Sequence record: MN850647.1
Length of the DNA stretch: 64,000 nucleotides
Strand: one strand, 5' to 3'
Origin: Escherichia phage tootiki
Of this stretch, positions 15,747 through 55,335 are shown piece by piece. A program made the translations under genes and the position numbers. The notes under the pieces are model-generated. The model was not told the origin of the DNA, did not search any database, and saw only the letters and a program-made list of their open reading frames with translations. Position 1 is the first letter of the stretch. Every line of letters begins with the position of its first letter.

Positions 15747-18098
15747 TTAAGCAGTTCTTACCCAAGCCATTAACTTGTAGAACTGGTTAGTAACACTAAA
15801 TGCTGAACCAGAACCTGTACCACCAGTGTTACCACTAACTGTATGAGTGTGAGCACCGATACCTACACTGTGAGCATGGTTACCAGCAGAAGCGGCAGTA
15901 CCACTTACAGAGTGGGTGTGAGCACCGTTAGCATCGGTGTAACCCGGTCCTACACCAATACTACCACCACCACCACCAGAGTAGTGTGTAGAGTTCTGAC
16001 CAATCCACGAAATGGAATGGTTGTGGTTACCAGCAGATGAAGTAGAGCCACTTACAGAGTGAGCGTGAGCACCAGTCGTGTTAGTGTTTTTAGTTCCGTA
16101 GTCAAAAGATGAAGTGGTAGCAGAAAAACTGTGAGTGTGTGAAGGTAAGTTCCCAACAGCTAACGTCACAGAGTCTGAACCACCAGTTGTAGCAACATCT
16201 GAACCGTTTGCTGCTGCAATTCTAATAGTTCTACCAACACCATTGTTGAGGTACGTCCAAGTTAGACCAGGCAGTGCTGTATTAGGGTTAACATTACTGT
16301 TAAACCATGTCACAATACCTACTGGATAGATTTTATTAAGGTCTGTAGAGTCACTTACTGCCTGTGCAATCTTCTGGTCAGTTTCAGCTTTAGTGTATGC
16401 ACCAAGCTCTGAAGGGGTTGGTTTCTGAGCCTCTGTGTAAACCTTAGACCACTTAGTCTCAAAACCTTTACTGTCTACAGATGTTCTGTACCACATCCCA
16501 CCATTTTTATACTGGAACTTTAGTTGCGCACAGGCAGTAGAAGAGGACACTCCCTGATACATTTGAAATACAAGTGATGTGTAATCACCATTTGGTGATG
16601 TTACATTATATAAGCCTGTTTTAGCGTTCCATGCCACACCATCTGCATTCTGCTCTGTAGCTTCTCCTGTAGAACCTGCAACCATGAATCTCTGATTAGC
16701 TGCTGACTGAGTGAAGTATCTAGCATCTAAGTTAGACCAATCAGAAGGTTTTACCTGTCCAGTAATCTGTAGAGATTTAGACAGAAGAATTTCGTCAGCT
16801 AAATCGAGTCTTGCACCAGTCAAGTAGTTATGGAAAGATGCAATACCAGAACCATTTGTCCCACAACCGATAAACCACTTATTTGTGTTATCAGTATTCT
16901 TACCAACAATGTAAGAAGAATTATTCTGAGCCTTGCTGTAGATTCTTAATGCTTCACCATCAGATTGAATATTCTGCTGTAAAGTGAATGTGTTAGCTTC
17001 ATTCTTCTTAGCAAGATTTGCGTATGAGCCGATAAGAACATAACGAGAGTCAATGTTAGTCCAATCTGAAGGTTGAACTTGACCAGTTACAGTTAGTGTT
17101 TTATTGATATTAACACTTGTCCCTACAGTAATCTTGCCACTAGTTTTGTAGTTTTCTAGAGCTACGTTATCACCTTCGTTACTATTACCAATGTACCATC
17201 TGTTGACACCTGTGCTATCAATCGCCTTAATGTACAATGGTTGTGCAGCATTGGCATTCTGTAGCCTAATTGCTTCACCATCTTTTTTGAAAACACTTAG
17301 TTGGTTGAATGTGTTTAAACCACTGAATGTGTTATTACCAACTAACTGTGCAAATCTCTGATTAGCTGCTGTCTGAGTAAAGTATCTAGCATCTAAGTTA
17401 GAGAAGTCAGAAGGTTGCACTTGACCATTGATTGATAAAGACCTATTAAAAGAAGCAGCCGTGCCTAGAGTGAGGATGGAACCTAGTTTACTCTCGATTT
17501 GAACATCAAGACTACCCCTAATCAGGTTCCCAATAGCCCAAGTTTTTTCATTACTTGCATCCCTACCTACAATAGCAGAGTATGCACTATCCCCACTCAC
17601 AGGAGACCTTAGTGTTAACTGTTCCCCATTTGCTACAATGGTCTGTTTAGAGTTAAATGTGTTTGTAACAGCCAACCTTGCATATCTTGCGTCATTCTCT
17701 TCATTAGTTCTCATCCCAAGTTCATTAGGACTTGGCTTATTAAGAGTATGATAAACAGTTGCAGACCTTGAAGCATCTGCAATAGTTAGTTTAAGACCAT
17801 TTGCGTTGATTTTAAAAGCCTTTAAAACATCCCCCATAGTAATCTCAGAAGAACCTGTAGGGTCAAATACTGCCTTACCACCATAAAGTAACTTGACAAT
17901 TCCTAAGTCACCCGTCATAGTGCTACCAGCAATCTGGACAAACCTTTCTAGTTTAAAAGATGCTAAGAAGTCTTGATAGGTCATTCGACGGTCTTCATCA
18001 CCCAACATTTCAGGTCTCTTTTTAACCCTGACATGAAGAAGGTCATCTGAACGAATTGTATCAATTGAGTTTAATTCACTCAACTTGTAATCTGCCAT
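15747..18098 (-). CDS. tail fibre protein with C-terminal HxH repeats
   Basis: Repeated GAHAHSVSG / AGNHNHS / GAHTHTVSG motifs near the C-terminus. Confidence 0.7.
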   Translation of the reverse strand: MADYKLSELNSIDTIRSDDLLHVRVKKRPEMLGDEDRRMTYQDFLASFKLERFVQIAGSTMTGDLGIVKLLYGGKAVFDPTGSSEITMGDVLKAFKINANGLKLTIADASRSATVYHTLNKPSPNELGMRTNEENDARYARLAVTNTFNSKQTIVANGEQLTLRSPVSGDSAYSAIVGRDASNEKTWAIGNLIRGSLDVQIESKLGSILTLGTAASFNRSLSINGQVQPSDFSNLDARYFTQTAANQRFAQLVGNNTFSGLNTFNQLSVFKKDGEAIRLQNANAAQPLYIKAIDSTGVNRWYIGNSNEGDNVALENYKTSGKITVGTSVNINKTLTVTGQVQPSDWTNIDSRYVLIGSYANLAKKNEANTFTLQQNIQSDGEALRIYSKAQNNSSYIVGKNTDNTNKWFIGCGTNGSGIASFHNYLTGARLDLADEILLSKSLQITGQVKPSDWSNLDARYFTQSAANQRFMVAGSTGEATEQNADGVAWNAKTGLYNVTSPNGDYTSLVFQMYQGVSSSTACAQLKFQYKNGGMWYRTSVDSKGFETKWSKVYTEAQKPTPSELGAYTKAETDQKIAQAVSDSTDLNKIYPVGIVTWFNSNVNPNTALPGLTWTYLNNGVGRTIRIAAANGSDVATTGGSDSVTLAVGNLPSHTHSFSATTSSFDYGTKNTNTTGAHAHSVSGSTSSAGNHNHSISWIGQNSTHYSGGGGGSIGVGPGYTDANGAHTHSVSGTAASAGNHAHSVGIGAHTHTVSGNTGGTGSGSAFSVTNQFYKLMAWVRTA

Positions 18099-36970: not shown

Positions 36971-38587
36971 TCAACGTCTAAGCCCCTCATATGGGTTTCC
37001 TCTCACTAAGTCTGTGTGAGCACCCATTGATGGTGGCTTGAATAATTTAACTTCGTTAAGACTGTTGAAAGCATCACTGGTAGCATCCACTTGGTCATCT
37101 TTAGTTTTACCATCACCACAAAAACCTTCAAGTTCTTGAAAGTAAGCTTCGTTCCAACTGCCTCTCAAGACTTTTACAAGTCCAGCTTCAGAAGCAGCAG
37201 AAAATCCCGCAAAGCGGGTAACTTTATCTTTATTTGTTGGTTTAGCTCTTGCGCGATAACCTTTCTCGGCAAGTTTCCTGATGAGGGATGTTGCATAGGA
37301 TTTACCAGCAGCGCCTGGGTCTTGAGGGATAAAAATACCAGTTCGCTTACCGTCACTTTCAGCAGTCAAATTAATTTGTGTTTCGACTCCAGAGGGTCTA
37401 TCTCTAAATCTTACTACATCAATGATATAATAGCAACCGTCTTTTTTAGATTTACCCATCTTAACACCCGCTGTCCAGTCTGGGTTAGGGTTAATTTCAG
37501 ATGGTAAAGTCGCTGCTAAGTCCCATGCTCTGACATCAAACACATCTTCTGGGAGTGAATCAACAATCTCACACCATTGTCTTTGCCAATAGTTTGAACC
37601 TTCTGCACGAGCCTTCCAGTTACCGAAACGAAGTCTTGCAACGTTTACAGGTGTGTTGTTTTCCAACTTACCACGATATTTAGGCTCTAAGAAGTCAAGA
37701 ATTGGGTTATCATCAATCGTACCAGAGATGAAGGTGTATGTCTGAGGAATCTCAAGAGGGAACATTTCAAGAATCTTGTCTCTCTCCCAATCAGAAACCA
37801 TCACACCATCATTCATAACATACCAACGAATACGACCACACTTCTCAGGGTCTGGGTAACCTTCTTCATCTAAGAATGGCTCTACCCAATCATAAATGAA
37901 GTGGTCTCTGTCTGGGTTCATAGAAATCTTCATGTATGAATCGCCTTCAGCACCAGAACGTAGACGGGTCTGTAGGTATGAAATCTGTGAAGCAGAGAAG
38001 TGTGTACCTTCGTCAAAGTAGATAGCTGAGTATTCAATACCCTGATGACCTTCAGCGTGCTTTTCAAGTTCTAAGTAGGTGAACTTAATAGTTGCCCCAG
38101 AAGGGAACGTGATAGTCATCTTCTGCTCGTGAGGAACCCCACCAAACTTACCAAATAGTTTCTTTGCAGCAGGCCATAAACCACCTTGTAACTGTGTTGT
38201 ATTTCGACGGAAATATACAGCATTATAGTTAGGGTCTTCAATAAACCTTAAAGAGTCCATTAACAATGCAGCAGTTTTACCAGCACCAGCAGCACCACCA
38301 TAGAGTACCAAGTCAGCATTAGTGTTTAAAAAGACCTCTTGAGAACCCGGCTGAGGGGCTACATAGTTCTTATCAGTCATCAACTTAAAGATAAGGCGAA
38401 CTTGGTCTGGTGTGTATCTTAATAAAGTCAGAATTTGAGTTGGAAGGAATTTAGAGGGGTCTTTACCGAATGATTTGATAATTTCTTTTACTTCATCAGA
38501 AAGCCCCAACTCTCCAGCTAGGACTTTCCTAACATCTTCCACTCGCTTCTGCTTAACAGCATTTAAATCCATTAAGCGCCTCCGCAA
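36971..38587 (-). CDS. terminase large subunit
   Basis: Walker A YGGAAGAGKTAAL, Walker B-like IYFDEGTHF, C-terminal nuclease-like acidic motifs. Confidence 0.85.
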   Translation of the reverse strand: MRRRLMDLNAVKQKRVEDVRKVLAGELGLSDEVKEIIKSFGKDPSKFLPTQILTLLRYTPDQVRLIFKLMTDKNYVAPQPGSQEVFLNTNADLVLYGGAAGAGKTAALLMDSLRFIEDPNYNAVYFRRNTTQLQGGLWPAAKKLFGKFGGVPHEQKMTITFPSGATIKFTYLELEKHAEGHQGIEYSAIYFDEGTHFSASQISYLQTRLRSGAEGDSYMKISMNPDRDHFIYDWVEPFLDEEGYPDPEKCGRIRWYVMNDGVMVSDWERDKILEMFPLEIPQTYTFISGTIDDNPILDFLEPKYRGKLENNTPVNVARLRFGNWKARAEGSNYWQRQWCEIVDSLPEDVFDVRAWDLAATLPSEINPNPDWTAGVKMGKSKKDGCYYIIDVVRFRDRPSGVETQINLTAESDGKRTGIFIPQDPGAAGKSYATSLIRKLAEKGYRARAKPTNKDKVTRFAGFSAASEAGLVKVLRGSWNEAYFQELEGFCGDGKTKDDQVDATSDAFNSLNEVKLFKPPSMGAHTDLVRGNPYEGLRR

Positions 38588-38593
38588 ATAGAA

Positions 38594-38794
38594 TTATTCA
38601 GAGTCTGTAGCAGTCTCTTCTTTCTTAACTTCGAACTTTGCATCAACAGCATCAAGAAGTGCATCCATAGATGCCTCTTTAATATCAATACCTGTTGCTA
38701 CAGACAATCTGTCTGCAATTGCCATGATAGTATTCTGCATAAATTCTAGCTTCTTATTAGCTTCATAAAGTTCTTTATAAACGGTCTCGCTCAT
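38594..38794 (-). CDS. hypothetical small protein
   Basis: 66-aa ORF immediately upstream of the terminase. Confidence 0.45.
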   Translation of the reverse strand: MSETVYKELYEANKKLEFMQNTIMAIADRLSVATGIDIKEASMDALLDAVDAKFEVKKEETATDSE

Positions 38795-39016: not shown

Positions 39017-39092
39017 TGGAGAATCCGAAGGGACTCGAACCCTTATAAACCTGTTCTGCAGACAGGTACATATCCATTTCTGTCACGGATTC
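39017..39092 (-). tRNA. tRNA-Cys (anticodon GCA)
   Basis: Cloverleaf by eye: acceptor GAATCCG/CGGATTC, anticodon stem CCTGT/ACAGG, loop CTGCAGA, T-loop TTCGAGT, CCA encoded. Confidence 0.7.
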
Positions 39093-39096
39093 AAAT

Positions 39097-39189
39097 TGGA
39101 GGAAGATACCAGACTTGAACTGGTACACCGATTTCTCAGCTACTGGCAGTTTAGCAAACTGCTCCCTTACCTTTTAGGGTTAATCTTCC
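39097..39189 (-). tRNA. tRNA-Ser (anticodon GCT), long variable arm
   Basis: Acceptor GGAAGAT/ATCTTCC, anticodon loop TTGCTAA, 21-nt variable arm, T-arm ACCAG-TTCAAGT-CTGGT. Confidence 0.7.
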
Positions 39190-39190
39190 A

Positions 39191-45872: not shown

Positions 45873-46244
45873 TTATTTTTTGAGAGTCGCTACAGCAGAG
45901 AACGTTGGTTTGTTATCTGTCTGTTGTTGACCACCATTATCAGGAGTCTTCTTAGTGTCTGCTGCAAGTGCTTTCATCTCACCTGCTGAGTGAGTAAAGA
46001 TAGTTTTACCGACCTCAATCATACTCTTGATGGTTACATCATCTGTGTTTAACCCGAACTCTGCAAGCTTAGCAGCGTCCCTTGTAACAATCGCCTCAAA
46101 CAACTTTGCAGCAAACTCAGCAGAATTATCAATGGTCAGTTGAGCTTTTACGAGTGAGCTTTTGTTACGAGAGCCTTTTGGTCTTCCAGATGGGTTTCCA
46201 GACTGGCCTTTTTTAAACTGGCCTTTGTTTGTTCTGTTTTTCAT
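45873..46244 (-). CDS. hypothetical protein with basic Gly-rich N-terminus
   Basis: N-terminal KGQFKKGQSGNPSGRPKGSRNK motif. Confidence 0.55.
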   Translation of the reverse strand: MKNRTNKGQFKKGQSGNPSGRPKGSRNKSSLVKAQLTIDNSAEFAAKLFEAIVTRDAAKLAEFGLNTDDVTIKSMIEVGKTIFTHSAGEMKALAADTKKTPDNGGQQQTDNKPTFSAVATLKK

Positions 46245-52887: not shown

Positions 52888-53449
52888 TGGTGTGATAGCT
52901 ATGGAAAAAGATAACTTAAAAGAAGTTGAAGGTAACTACCTAGTACTTGACTGGAACGATGTTCGAGAAGCACTCTCCGAAGAAAATCTTGACTGGTTCG
53001 AACAAATTATCTTTGCAGTACGGCATAACAGAGAAGTTGAAAATGGTAAAGAGCCACTTGAAGGAATCTTTGTAGAGAAGTCTTATCCGTTCTATGAAGA
53101 TACTTTGCAGAAAGTTAAAATGTACTTTAAACAGAAGAACCGTAAAGTGGTCACTATGGTATCTTTTGGTGGACAGAGTATGTCTGTGATGGAAGATATC
53201 AACCCTAAGAGACCGAGCAAAGGTGTCTGTATAAAAATCACAGGGCATGAAGAGTATATCTCAGTGGACGATTTTAGTGTGTTCTGTAATGGTTCTGCTG
53301 TCTTTAATGGGTTTCACTATGATATCCGAGTGTACCCAATCAAGGGAGATGATATCATGATGCAGATATTCGATAACAACAATGGATTTACTCATTTTTA
53401 TCAGACAACCAAGTCATCATTAAAAACAGTTCTGGAAACACTGATTTAA
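52856..53449 (+). CDS. hypothetical protein (start uncertain)
   Basis: 197-aa ORF; last gene before the ORF-free region. Confidence 0.5.
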   Translation: MQYQPTKFYDNGVIAMEKDNLKEVEGNYLVLDWNDVREALSEENLDWFEQIIFAVRHNREVENGKEPLEGIFVEKSYPFYEDTLQKVKMYFKQKNRKVVTMVSFGGQSMSVMEDINPKRPSKGVCIKITGHEEYISVDDFSVFCNGSAVFNGFHYDIRVYPIKGDDIMMQIFDNNNGFTHFYQTTKSSLKTVLETLI

Positions 53450-55086
53450 AATATCTTAAGAGCCTCCTTAATTGGGGGCTTTTTAATTTTTATAAAATTT
53501 TATCGGTTGTCCCAACCTCTGGGTCACCATCATATGTGAATAAAATATCTACCCTTCTTAACAACCTTCTTAATCTTACTCTCTATATAGTTATATAGTA
53601 CTATATAGTATCTTAGTAACTATCTAGTGGTCTTAATAGCCCTCTGTATAGCCCTTCTAAATAGCCTTCTAAACACTCTTCTAACAAGCCCTCTTAACCA
53701 CCTATACAATCACCTTAACCATCCCTCTACACCCTCTTAGAAGCTCCTATACACCTCTTAATCTCTAGGTTAGCTATGGCACTCTCTATAGGTGTTCACT
53801 AGGTAATACTAAGCCTCTATATAGACTGTTTTAACAAACTTAACAGGAATATCTTTACAGACCTTACCTCACAAGGTCTAACACGGTACTAACAAGGTAT
53901 CTTGTAAGCCTGTTTCTACCTGTATTTTTAAAAGACTGTATAGGTAATTATTCAGAATTTTAAAATTTTTATAAAATAGGACTATCAAGTCATTTTTTAG
54001 GGTCTTTGAAGGAACTGAAAAATATCTGTCTAGGATGTATATCTGCTTGGTAGCCCTTAACAGCTCCCTTACAAGTACTTTGCAAAATTTTAAAATATCC
54101 TTAACAATCTCTTAACAGTTCTCACATCTTCTTAACAACTCTTCAAAGGTCTTAACAGATTCTTAACAGAACTAACAAGGCTGTAACAGTTTCTTAACAG
54201 TTGATACATAATCTTTACAGAGGCTTAACAGATGACTAACAAGAGCTAACAAGTTAATTTTAAAGAGTTATTTTGTTAAGATTATTAACAAGTTTCTAAC
54301 AAGTCTTTAATCTTTTTAACAAGCTATTAACATGGTCACTATCTCTTTCTTATCGTTCCCTTTCCTTTCTTAGTGATTCTTTAAACATACCTCTTAAAAG
54401 CTCTCTATAGCTCTTTATAAGCTCTTTTAAGTCTCTTCCTAGTAGTTACACCCCAACTGTACAGATAGCTCTCTATAGGGCTTTACAGGAGCTTTTAAGG
54501 CTATGTCAAAGACTCTTACAAGGCTTTTACGTGGTCTTAACAGAGATTTAACAAGGGGCTAACAAGTTGCTAACAAGTGTCTTAAAAGCATAACTATGTA
54601 GGGATTGTTAAGAAATTGTTAAGAAAATGTTAAGGGGGCTAGTATTTACGTAACTTTTAAGCTACTTCAAAATAACTTTTAAGCTACTTCAAAATAACTT
54701 TATAGCCCCCTTCTTAGATATTCACAAGATAACTAATGAGATGATAAAGCTTACACCCTTATAAGATTCTTTTAAGGCTCTGGGAAGCTTTATAAAGGGC
54801 TTTTAATGGTGAGGTAATGCAATCCCTTAAGTTAGGTTAATAAGGTCGTTATAGGGCTTTATAGAGCGTTTAAATGGTTGCCCTTCCCTTTCGGGTTATG
54901 GGCTTATATTTAAGTTGATTTGATAAGGGGCTATAGAGTAAGCTATAGAGTTATTGTTTTTTAAGGTCTGATAAGATTCTGGAAAGGAAAGGGAAAGGGT
55001 TGTATAAGGGATTTGATAAGACGTAAAAAAGCCCCATATAAAGGGGCTGTAAAGGTATCTGGGGCTATTTAGCCCCGTTGCGGCGT
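53450..55086. repeat. 1.6-kb ORF-free region dense in short direct repeats (iteron-like)
   Basis: No ORF of 60 aa or more in any frame; many copies of CTTAACAG / CTAACAAG / TTAACAAG, CTATATAG and CTCTATAG motifs; tandem 22-bp repeat at about 54655-54700. Confidence 0.6.
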
Positions 55087-55335
55087 TTAGTTAGTGCCTT
55101 CTTTGTCGTAGTACAAGGAGACAATTTTTTCACCCCAGTAGTGGTATGTATAACCCTCTTTGAGAACTTCCTCTTTTGTTTCTTTCCAGAATTCATCAGA
55201 GGGGTTGTAGTCACTGATGGTCTGGCTGATAAGGCCTTTCACCATTTCAAAGGCGTTATCAGTACCTACAAGGTCAAATTTAACGTCCAGAGAGTAGAAG
55301 CCAAATTCGTTAACAGTTGCGCGGATAGTAGCCAT
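55087..55335 (-). CDS. hypothetical small protein
   Basis: ATG immediately follows the conserved leader module. Confidence 0.55.
   Translation of the reverse strand: MATIRATVNEFGFYSLDVKFDLVGTDNAFEMVKGLISQTISDYNPSDEFWKETKEEVLKEGYTYHYWGEKIVSLYYDKEGTN

Follow-up and report, generated by a model that had tools for sequence, protein, structure and literature searches.

Terminal repeats of Felix O1-like phages and the counterpart in phage tootiki

Direct terminal repeats (DTRs) of Felix O1-like myoviruses are the closest described counterpart of the element analyzed here, a gene-free region at positions 53450-55086 of a 64,000-nucleotide (nt) stretch of Escherichia phage tootiki (MN850647.1; below, the window). 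In phage UAB_Phi87 fixed, non-permuted genome ends were found by time-limited Bal31 digestion followed up with SpeI, and a 608-bp DTR was determined by primer run-off sequencing, its sequence being given in Figure S1 of the same paper (Bardina et al. 2016, PMC4837284). The termini of phage vB_EcoM_H12 were assigned with PhageTerm, and direct terminal repeats were reported (PMC11737134). The Felix O1 genome paper inferred only ‘short terminal repeats’ from pulsed-field gel electrophoresis and did not describe the gap that corresponds to our region; a comparative Felixounavirus paper does not mention it, and no account of it was found in the passages searched of the PhageMaP Bas63 preprint. Since the element has been mapped experimentally in the genus and is annotated in some records, the DTR itself is already published and its novelty is low. 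Three of its features, i.e. an array of TTAACA motifs phased at 11 bp, mirror arrays in the subterminal DNA and the persistence of this layout into the genus Kolesnikvirus, were not found described in the literature searched.

The organization of the ends of phage T7 offers a second point of reference. Dunn and Studier are said to have described, in 1983, the SRL and SRR short-repeat arrays that accompany the T7 terminal repeat. In the T7 sequence, which was checked for this purpose, a 160-bp terminal repeat lies amid arrays of CCTAAAG, present in 13 directly oriented copies with 13-bp spacing. To our knowledge, the role of these arrays is still unclear.

The window is, by its sequence, that of a Felixounavirus, i.e. 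a Felix O1-like myovirus, and it has the tRNA cluster typical of these phages. Homologs of the region were found in 256 phage records, every one of them from the Felix O1-like group (Felixounavirus, Mooglevirus and Suspvirus), with a best identity of 96%. In Felix O1 the counterpart is a gap of 1622 bp between open reading frames (ORFs) ORF23 and ORF24. The initial annotation had singled out 1.6 kb free of ORFs between convergent gene blocks, and this description was borne out: the plus-strand block stops at 53449, the minus-strand block stops at 55087, and the longest ORF in any frame between them encodes 37 aa. Those lying wholly within the region (53627-53740 on the plus strand, 53878-53988 and 53990-54085 on the minus strand) span 31-37 aa only. 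On the basis of its lack of ORFs, its homologs in 256 records and its conservation, the whole of 53450-55086 is assigned as a putative noncoding concatemer-junction (genome-terminus) region.

We consider it very probable (roughly 90%) that 53450-55086 represents the concatemer junction of this Felix O1-like phage, in which positions 54049-54639 form a short exact DTR of 591 bp, while the flanks are unique subterminal sequence. By homology, the part at 53450-54048 adjoins the right genome end and that at 54640-55086 adjoins the left one. In the circularly assembled window the repeat occurs once; the end repeats and record starts of relatives point to its presence at both ends of the virion DNA.

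Record ends were compared in a spread sample of the region's matches. The records of vB_EcoM_H12, ECP2307, NBEco005, CRP22 and HP1 begin or end at window position 54639|54640 (query position 1190), and one contig of SPT-1 ends there. The same base is thus shared by five or more independent records and by one contig end, as is characteristic of fixed ends at a conserved position. In the record of Citrobacter phage HP1 a repeat_region of 570 bp is annotated at each end, the two copies being identical, and the CRP22 record likewise begins and ends with an exact 579-bp repeat. The repeats of HP1 and CRP22 both extend from CTT|GGTAGCCCTTAAC to GTTAAGGGGGC|TAG (CTT|GGTAGCCC and GGGGGC|TAG). The same boundary strings delimit 54049-54639 in the window, and they are invariant or almost so in the nine genomes, representing three genera, whose junctions were aligned for the conservation analysis.

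The experimental data for UAB_Phi87 lead to the same place. The reverse complement of its published DTR corresponds to the window sequence from TTGGTAGCCC to AAAATGTT, at 54047-54631, and in the UAB_Phi87 record the interval from GGTAGCCC to GGGGGC measures 614 bp. Because the mapped DTR of this phage falls there, the central third of the region is the known DTR of the genus. The tootiki repeat and the Felix O1-like DTR (UAB_Phi87, PMC4837284; HP1, OK539913) are therefore the same element with the same boundary sequences, differing in length (591 bp in the window versus 569-614 bp in ten relatives) by insertions and deletions (indels) of 11- or 22-bp units. Among the four candidate functions that the initial annotation offered without choosing between them, that of a packaging or terminal-repeat region is the one supported, the central 591 bp matching base for base the DTR in the GenBank records of relatives as well as the UAB_Phi87 mapping.

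Two further records were considered as boundary evidence and set aside. That of MET-P1-301 opens some 14 bp into the repeat and lacks exact repeats at its ends, while the record of Erwinia phage Fifi106 is a circular older version that is not opened at a terminus, its first 900 bp being coding.

The practical value of the boundaries lies in record keeping and engineering. The roughly 250 Felix O1-like genomes in public databases start at arbitrary positions, and some of them carry spurious small ORFs or an unexplained ‘repeat_region’ in this interval; the strings CTT|GGTAGCCCTTAAC and GTTAAGGGGGC|TA allow their true ends to be placed from sequence alone. Felix O1-like phages serve in Salmonella and E. 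coli diagnostics and in biocontrol, and genome editing or rebooting must respect the ‘empty’ 1.6 kb, which is a cis-acting packaging region more constrained than the neighboring genes.

Phased motif arrays and their conservation

The claim that the region is saturated with short motifs was confirmed by counting. Motifs CTTAACAG and CTAACAAG each occur eight times, whereas about 0.1 and 0.04 copies, respectively, are expected from the rest of the window; both are strongly strand-asymmetric, with no reverse complement in the region. Three copies each of CTCTATAG and CTATATAG were found against an expectation of about zero. The generic frame CTNNNNAG (CT-N4-AG), into which all of the listed motifs fit, reaches 38.5 per kb in the region versus 9.4 per kb elsewhere.

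These motifs follow the helical repeat of DNA. Thirty-nine of the 62 spacings between neighboring motifs deviate by no more than 1 bp from a multiple of 11 (binomial p = 5e-9 versus 3/11; 41% in the rest of the window, which served as a control), and AA dinucleotides show a periodicity of 11.1 bp that is stronger than in 1000 of 1000 random placements. The suggestion of an array for a DNA-binding protein was thus upheld in part: the motif cores are helically phased and, as described below, conserved, but no binding protein was identified.

The left boundary of the repeat lies within the longest invariant block of the alignment, TGTATATCTGCTT|GGTAGCCCTTAACA (27 nt; 54036-54062), and the cut at 54048|54049 is placed there by the ends of HP1 and CRP22. 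This block is a candidate recognition and cleavage site for the terminase. The left end of the DTR reads TAGCCCTTAACA. It is followed on the plus strand by the main array of (C/T)TAACA(A/G)G units at 54099-54335, which comprises 15 plus-strand TAACA cores (16 when the one at 54058 is counted) and a single minus-strand copy; its sites fall within 54058-54332, spaced mainly by 9-11 or 20 bp. Next come, also on the plus strand, units of CTCTATAG, CTTTATAA, CTTTTAAG and CTTTACAG at 54385-54500 with 10-11-bp spacing, and four TAACA sites at exact 11-bp intervals (54538, 54549, 54560 and 54571; feature 54536-54579), where relatives show 11- or 22-bp indels.

The right end of the DTR is formed by three inverted TGTTAAG units on the minus strand (54604-54639; an 11-bp tandem with 95% match, inverted repeats I1, I9 and I11), which run into the right boundary GTTAAGGGGGC|TAG with its cut at 54639|54640, as given by the record starts of H12, HP1 and CRP22. 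These units mirror the left-end TAGCCCTTAACA, and the right boundary reads TGTTAAGGGGGC|TA, so that the DTR is bounded by an imperfect inverted copy of (TA)GCCC(CC)TTAACA. The TTAACA/TGTTAA inverted segments (I1) are 38 nt long and 79% complementary.

Outside the repeat, the left subterminal DNA contains arrays at 53550-53910 that are pyrimidine-rich on the plus strand (CCTTCTTAAC, CTATATAG, CCTTCTAA and a few TAACA), including the invariant blocks 53814-53830 and 53871-53887. Closer to the boundary lies the AT-rich block TAAAATTTTTATAAAATAG (53961-53979; 19 nt), invariant in all nine aligned genomes and a member of the inverted-repeat pair I23. The AT-rich word TTTTTATAAAAT(TTT) is present in two inverted copies, at 53486-53502 and 53961-53979, the second about 70 bp outside the left boundary. 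On the other side, 12 bp beyond the DTR, we located the perfect 22-bp tandem repeat that had been noted near 54655-54700; it occupies 54651-54701 on the plus strand (2.3 copies, 100% match), and its copy number and sequence differ among relatives. The right subterminal arrays at 54700-55010 are purine-rich on the plus strand (CTTTATAG, CTATAGAG and GGAAAG) and contain the invariant blocks 54757-54776, 54859-54871 and 54943-54955. The GC skew changes from -0.26 in the left flank through -0.13 in the DTR to +0.23 in the right flank; because of this reversal, the flanks mirror each other, and the two genome ends present the same picture when read inward.

In a comparison with T7, both phages have a short exact DTR in a gene-free junction, with irregular arrays of 7-8-bp motifs spaced near one helical turn, and in both the arrays flank the terminal repeat. 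However, the T7 arrays lie mostly outside the repeat, whereas the main array of tootiki lies inside its 591 bp, and the directly oriented CCTAAAG motifs at 13 bp contrast with TTAACA, CTNTATAG and CTTTTAAG at 11 bp and with mirror-oriented flanks. No relationship of sequence or terminase family supports membership in the T7 type.

The region retains 77-82% nt identity between genera in the nine-genome alignment. In pairwise alignments between genera the values are 82-84% for the region versus 61-75% for the flanking genes, and the 197-aa neighboring protein shows about 50% identity. Since the region exceeds the flanking genes in identity, this gene-free DNA is under stronger constraint than its neighbors. 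Within it, the TAACA and TTAACA cores are 84-89% invariant versus 55% at the remaining positions, and the spacers of 3-5 nt vary freely. Larger indels among relatives cluster at 11-12 and 22-25 bp, i.e. whole units, which keeps the phase. Indels of 1-2 nt are also numerous, which argues against a coding function. Small ‘hypothetical protein’ coding sequences are annotated in the homologous region of some records (Phi87_32-34 of UAB_Phi87, CDS0001-2 of H12); given the frequency of such 1-2-nt indels among relatives, these are unlikely to be genes.

The architecture extends beyond the three aligned genera. Erwinia phage phiEa21-4 (Kolesnikvirus) was absent from the blastn matches to the DTR junction, and of the 14 invariant blocks shared by the other three genera, its syntenic region matched only three. 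Its syntenic gap (16472-17912) nevertheless holds the densest TTAACA cluster of the first 45 kb (25 sites, 17.3 per kb versus 0.94 per kb elsewhere). The layout is that of the window, with plus-oriented sites followed by inverted TGTTAA sites, and the spacing series of the gap and of the Felix-type array are similar (22, 11, 20, 20, 20, 9, 11, 11 and 11, 20, 20, 11, 9, 11, 11, respectively). The flank motif differs, being (C/T)TTAGAAG in 12 copies of a single orientation. A small ORF (gp32) is annotated inside this gap in the phiEa21-4 record. Motif TGTATATCTGCTT lies directly outside the left boundary in Kolesnikvirus as well, and vEam_PM_21 of this genus has an exact 438-bp end repeat whose initial GCCACTTTTACATTTCGTTAACA can be aligned with GCCCCCTTAACATTTCTTTAACA of the Felix type. 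As the end architecture is shared with phiEa21-4 and vEam_PM_21, it is ancestral to the subfamily, with TTAACA as its most conserved word.

Packaging machinery and alternative roles of the arrays

The putative enzyme acting at the DTR boundaries is the terminase large subunit (TerL), encoded at 36971-38587 on the minus strand (phrog_979, E = 8e-234). Felix O1-type TerL proteins form a DTR cluster of their own (PMC4837284), and TerL was the only terminase subunit identifiable in Felix O1 and UAB_Phi87 (Felix O1 genome paper; PMC4837284). One protein of the window, encoded at 45873-46244 on the minus strand (123 aa, DUF5681), may be considered a speculative small-terminase candidate. It is conserved across the Ounavirinae, including phages of Erwinia, Hafnia and Pectobacterium, and contains an invariant basic N-terminal motif K-G-x3-N-x2-G-R-P (K12-G13...N17..G20-R21-P22...N27). 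Its Felix O1 homolog, ORF41, is the first plus-strand gene past the divergent ORF40/41 gap, upstream of a Ro-like protein gene, and in phiEa21-4 the DUF5681 gene lies upstream of the tRNA cluster and TerL. The AlphaFold model predicts a basic arm and a helical hairpin (predicted local distance difference test [pLDDT] score 69, predicted template modeling score 0.37).

At the right edge of the region an 82-aa ORF (55087-55335, minus strand; phrog_4559) encodes a homolog of Felix O1 ORF23, which was found among the virion proteins by whole-phage shotgun mass spectrometry (Felix O1 genome paper). It gave no Pfam match and no meaningful match to a PDB sequence, and having no known family or PDB match it was dropped as a candidate reader of the arrays. 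PHROG matches of the nine flanking ORFs were confined to families without a known function; seven of the nine were scanned against Pfam, none with a significant result.

A packaging scheme can be outlined for these components by analogy with other short-DTR phages such as T7. The terminase would recognize conserved boundary sequences in concatemers, the strongest candidate being TGTATATCTGCTT|GGTAGCCCTTAACA together with the mirror copy TGTTAAGGGGGC|TA, and would nick opposite strands about 591 bp apart, at the two boundaries. With the top-strand nick at 54048|54049 and the bottom-strand nick at 54639|54640 (a strand assignment that we infer), 5′ overhangs would be left that a polymerase could fill. 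Fill-in or strand-displacement synthesis would then duplicate the 591-nt interval, giving a repeat at both ends of each packaged genome, and after infection concatemers would arise through recombination or annealing of genomes at their repeats. The inverted TTAACA/TGTTAA segments could pair in a repeat that has become single-stranded. Comparison with relatives suggests that this phage cuts at the same bases as they do.

The phased TTAACA array and the mirror flank arrays most likely provide a platform for cooperative binding or bending by a phage protein, e.g. a packaging recognition subunit. A more specific version is put forward tentatively: the arrays may be the loading platform of an unrecognized packaging-initiation protein, possibly the DUF5681 protein, and the inverted repeat ends may form an intermediate that primes duplication of the DTR. 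In lambda cosB (R sites), SPP1 pacL/pacR and P1 pac (hexamers), recognition involves multiple sites and an identified small terminase, and the ends are cohesive or headful. The junction resembles these regions in having several short repeated sites beside the cleavage site, the sites being regarded as loading points for an oligomer of the small terminase on bent DNA, but differs in its exact direct-repeat ends and in the lack of a recognized small terminase. The region is mostly ordinary for such a phage; its conserved array of phased TTAACA motifs is a modest, testable lead to the missing DNA-recognition component of the terminase system.

Several observations weigh against this interpretation or limit it. 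The window holds a single copy of the repeat, no 25-mer of which recurs in it, and the ends of this phage are placed by homology only; a single copy is, however, to be expected of a circular-style assembly. The experimental boundaries of UAB_Phi87 lie at +2 and -8 nt relative to those derived from records (54047 versus 54049 and 54631 versus 54639), which makes the cut positions, or the form of the ends, provisional. The offset could reflect imprecision of the run-off method, an artefact, or a real short single-stranded end. The search for a small terminase yielded none, as the 66-aa ORF (38594-38794) upstream of TerL and those within the tRNA cluster matched DUF families only, and the DUF5681 model (pLDDT 69) had no Foldseek match in PDB at E <1. 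Finally, no protein was identified as binding the TTAACA arrays, and these could serve another end-related role (replication, ejection or end protection) besides or instead of packaging.

One version of the last possibility has the best claim among the alternatives, doubtful as we consider it. The arrays would bind a phage or host protein in a role unrelated to terminase recognition, e.g. protection or tethering of the ends, a pause during ejection, or condensation of the first or last packaged DNA; an ejection pause has been proposed for the repeat-rich first-step-transfer end of T5. Conserved cores with variable spacers and 11-bp phasing would suit such a role, as would flank arrays that are mirror-oriented about the DTR, making both ends alike when read inward, and the abutting gene (55087-55335) for a homolog of a virion protein. 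Against it stand the lack of an identified binding protein, since the 82-aa neighbor matches no known family, and the position of the longest invariant block exactly on the cleavage site, which indicates the cutting machinery. As an explanation of the arrays, though not of the repeat, an end-related role of this kind is a reasonable alternative. Arrays of similar form occur in the type II/III plasmid centromeres parC of R1 (11-bp repeats) and tubC (12-bp repeats), which a small DNA-binding adaptor coats cooperatively. The likeness to these phased repeats of about 11 bp is in form only: no partition nucleoside triphosphatase or adaptor families occur among the neighbors here, and we know of no need for partition in a virulent phage. 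A replication origin with iterons, as had also been proposed for the region, is unlikely, whether in place of the terminal-repeat role or beside it. Phased 11/22-bp repeats would bind an initiator and AT-rich blocks would unwind; iteron-like repeats together with the 22-bp tandem repeat, the invariant AT-rich block at 53961-53979, a DnaA-box-like match at 53543 (one versus 0.13 expected) and conservation exceeding that of the neighboring genes could be read in this way. Iterons of R6K, P1, F and the lambda origin are 17-22 bp long and bound by a Rep protein encoded nearby. The junction shares with them direct repeats phased in multiples of 11 bp beside AT-rich DNA, whereas its cores are of 5-8 bp, apart from one 22-bp unit in 2.3 copies, and the flanking ORFs include no initiator, helicase-loader or Rep family. 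Moreover, the interval coincides exactly with mapped genome ends, and GC skew in the window tracks gene orientation and so gives no independent origin signal. Scans of the region for the integration host factor consensus gave no match, and those for DnaA and Chi motifs nothing notable. The origin proposal was therefore left without specific support.

Two further readings are far less probable. Replication slippage or recombination at genome ends might leave functionless repeat debris, as the unit-wise indels of 11-12 and 22-25 bp and the variable 22-bp tandem repeat among relatives could suggest, but this is highly improbable. The region is more conserved across genera than the flanking protein genes and its motif cores are selectively conserved, which contradicts an origin as debris; in addition, the architecture persists in Kolesnikvirus despite only three of 14 invariant blocks being matched. 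The least probable explanation is a long noncoding RNA or a cluster of small RNAs transcribed from the region, another of the initial suggestions. It would account for 1.6 kb of conserved and gene-free DNA, and the DTR does fold more stably than shuffled sequences (z = -2.65 and -2.21 on the two strands). This folding signal is, however, similar on both strands and is attributed to the TTAACA/TGTTAA inverted DNA repeats (I1). An Rfam scan of 53300-55300 with E up to 1 returned only a chance Phe_leader match on the terminator at 53428-53488 (26 bits versus a gathering threshold of 55), promoter-like sites are not in excess (8 versus 5.6 +/- 2.6 in shuffles), and the terminators on both sides point into the region. 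Conservation is concentrated in short cores and not in paired helices, and relatives differ by many 1-2-nt and 11/22-nt indels. The RNA proposal is not supported.

Features flanking the junction and elsewhere in the window

Terminator-like hairpins pointing inward were detected by a terminator scan at both edges of the region. The intrinsic terminator at 53458-53483 (plus strand) ends the plus-strand, lysin/tail-side block, and a terminator is annotated at its counterpart in KhF1 and Michonne; that at 55030-55048 (minus strand, read from 55048 to 55030) ends the minus-strand block. Both have a short-loop form in the window. A long form, with the inserted palindrome ATGGATTCGATAGAATCTATCTCAT, was seen in relatives in the nine-genome alignment: in HP1 and Michonne at the left terminator, and in CRP22 and SUSP2 at the right one.

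A palindromic mini-insertion of about 22 bp, (GGG)ATTGGTAACAATACCAAT(T), is present at different junction positions in PC79-13 (131-148 of locus L004), CRP22 (740-757 of L011), SUSP2 (1309-1326 of L016) and UAB_Phi87 (1104-1121 of L019), and is missing from the window. Its appearance is that of a very small insert, either mobile or brought in by recombination.

The tetranucleotide GATC has no copy in positions 1-64000 of the window, compared with about 217-226 expected, while every other 4-bp palindrome is present in 21-596 copies. The literature already describes the lack of MboI (GATC) sites in this genus, for Alf5 and VpaE1 among other members.

Twenty-four tRNA genes are clustered on the minus strand at 39017-44210, interrupted by several ORFs. 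One of these ORFs, at 42190-42588 on the minus strand, encodes an HNH endonuclease (phrog_2255).

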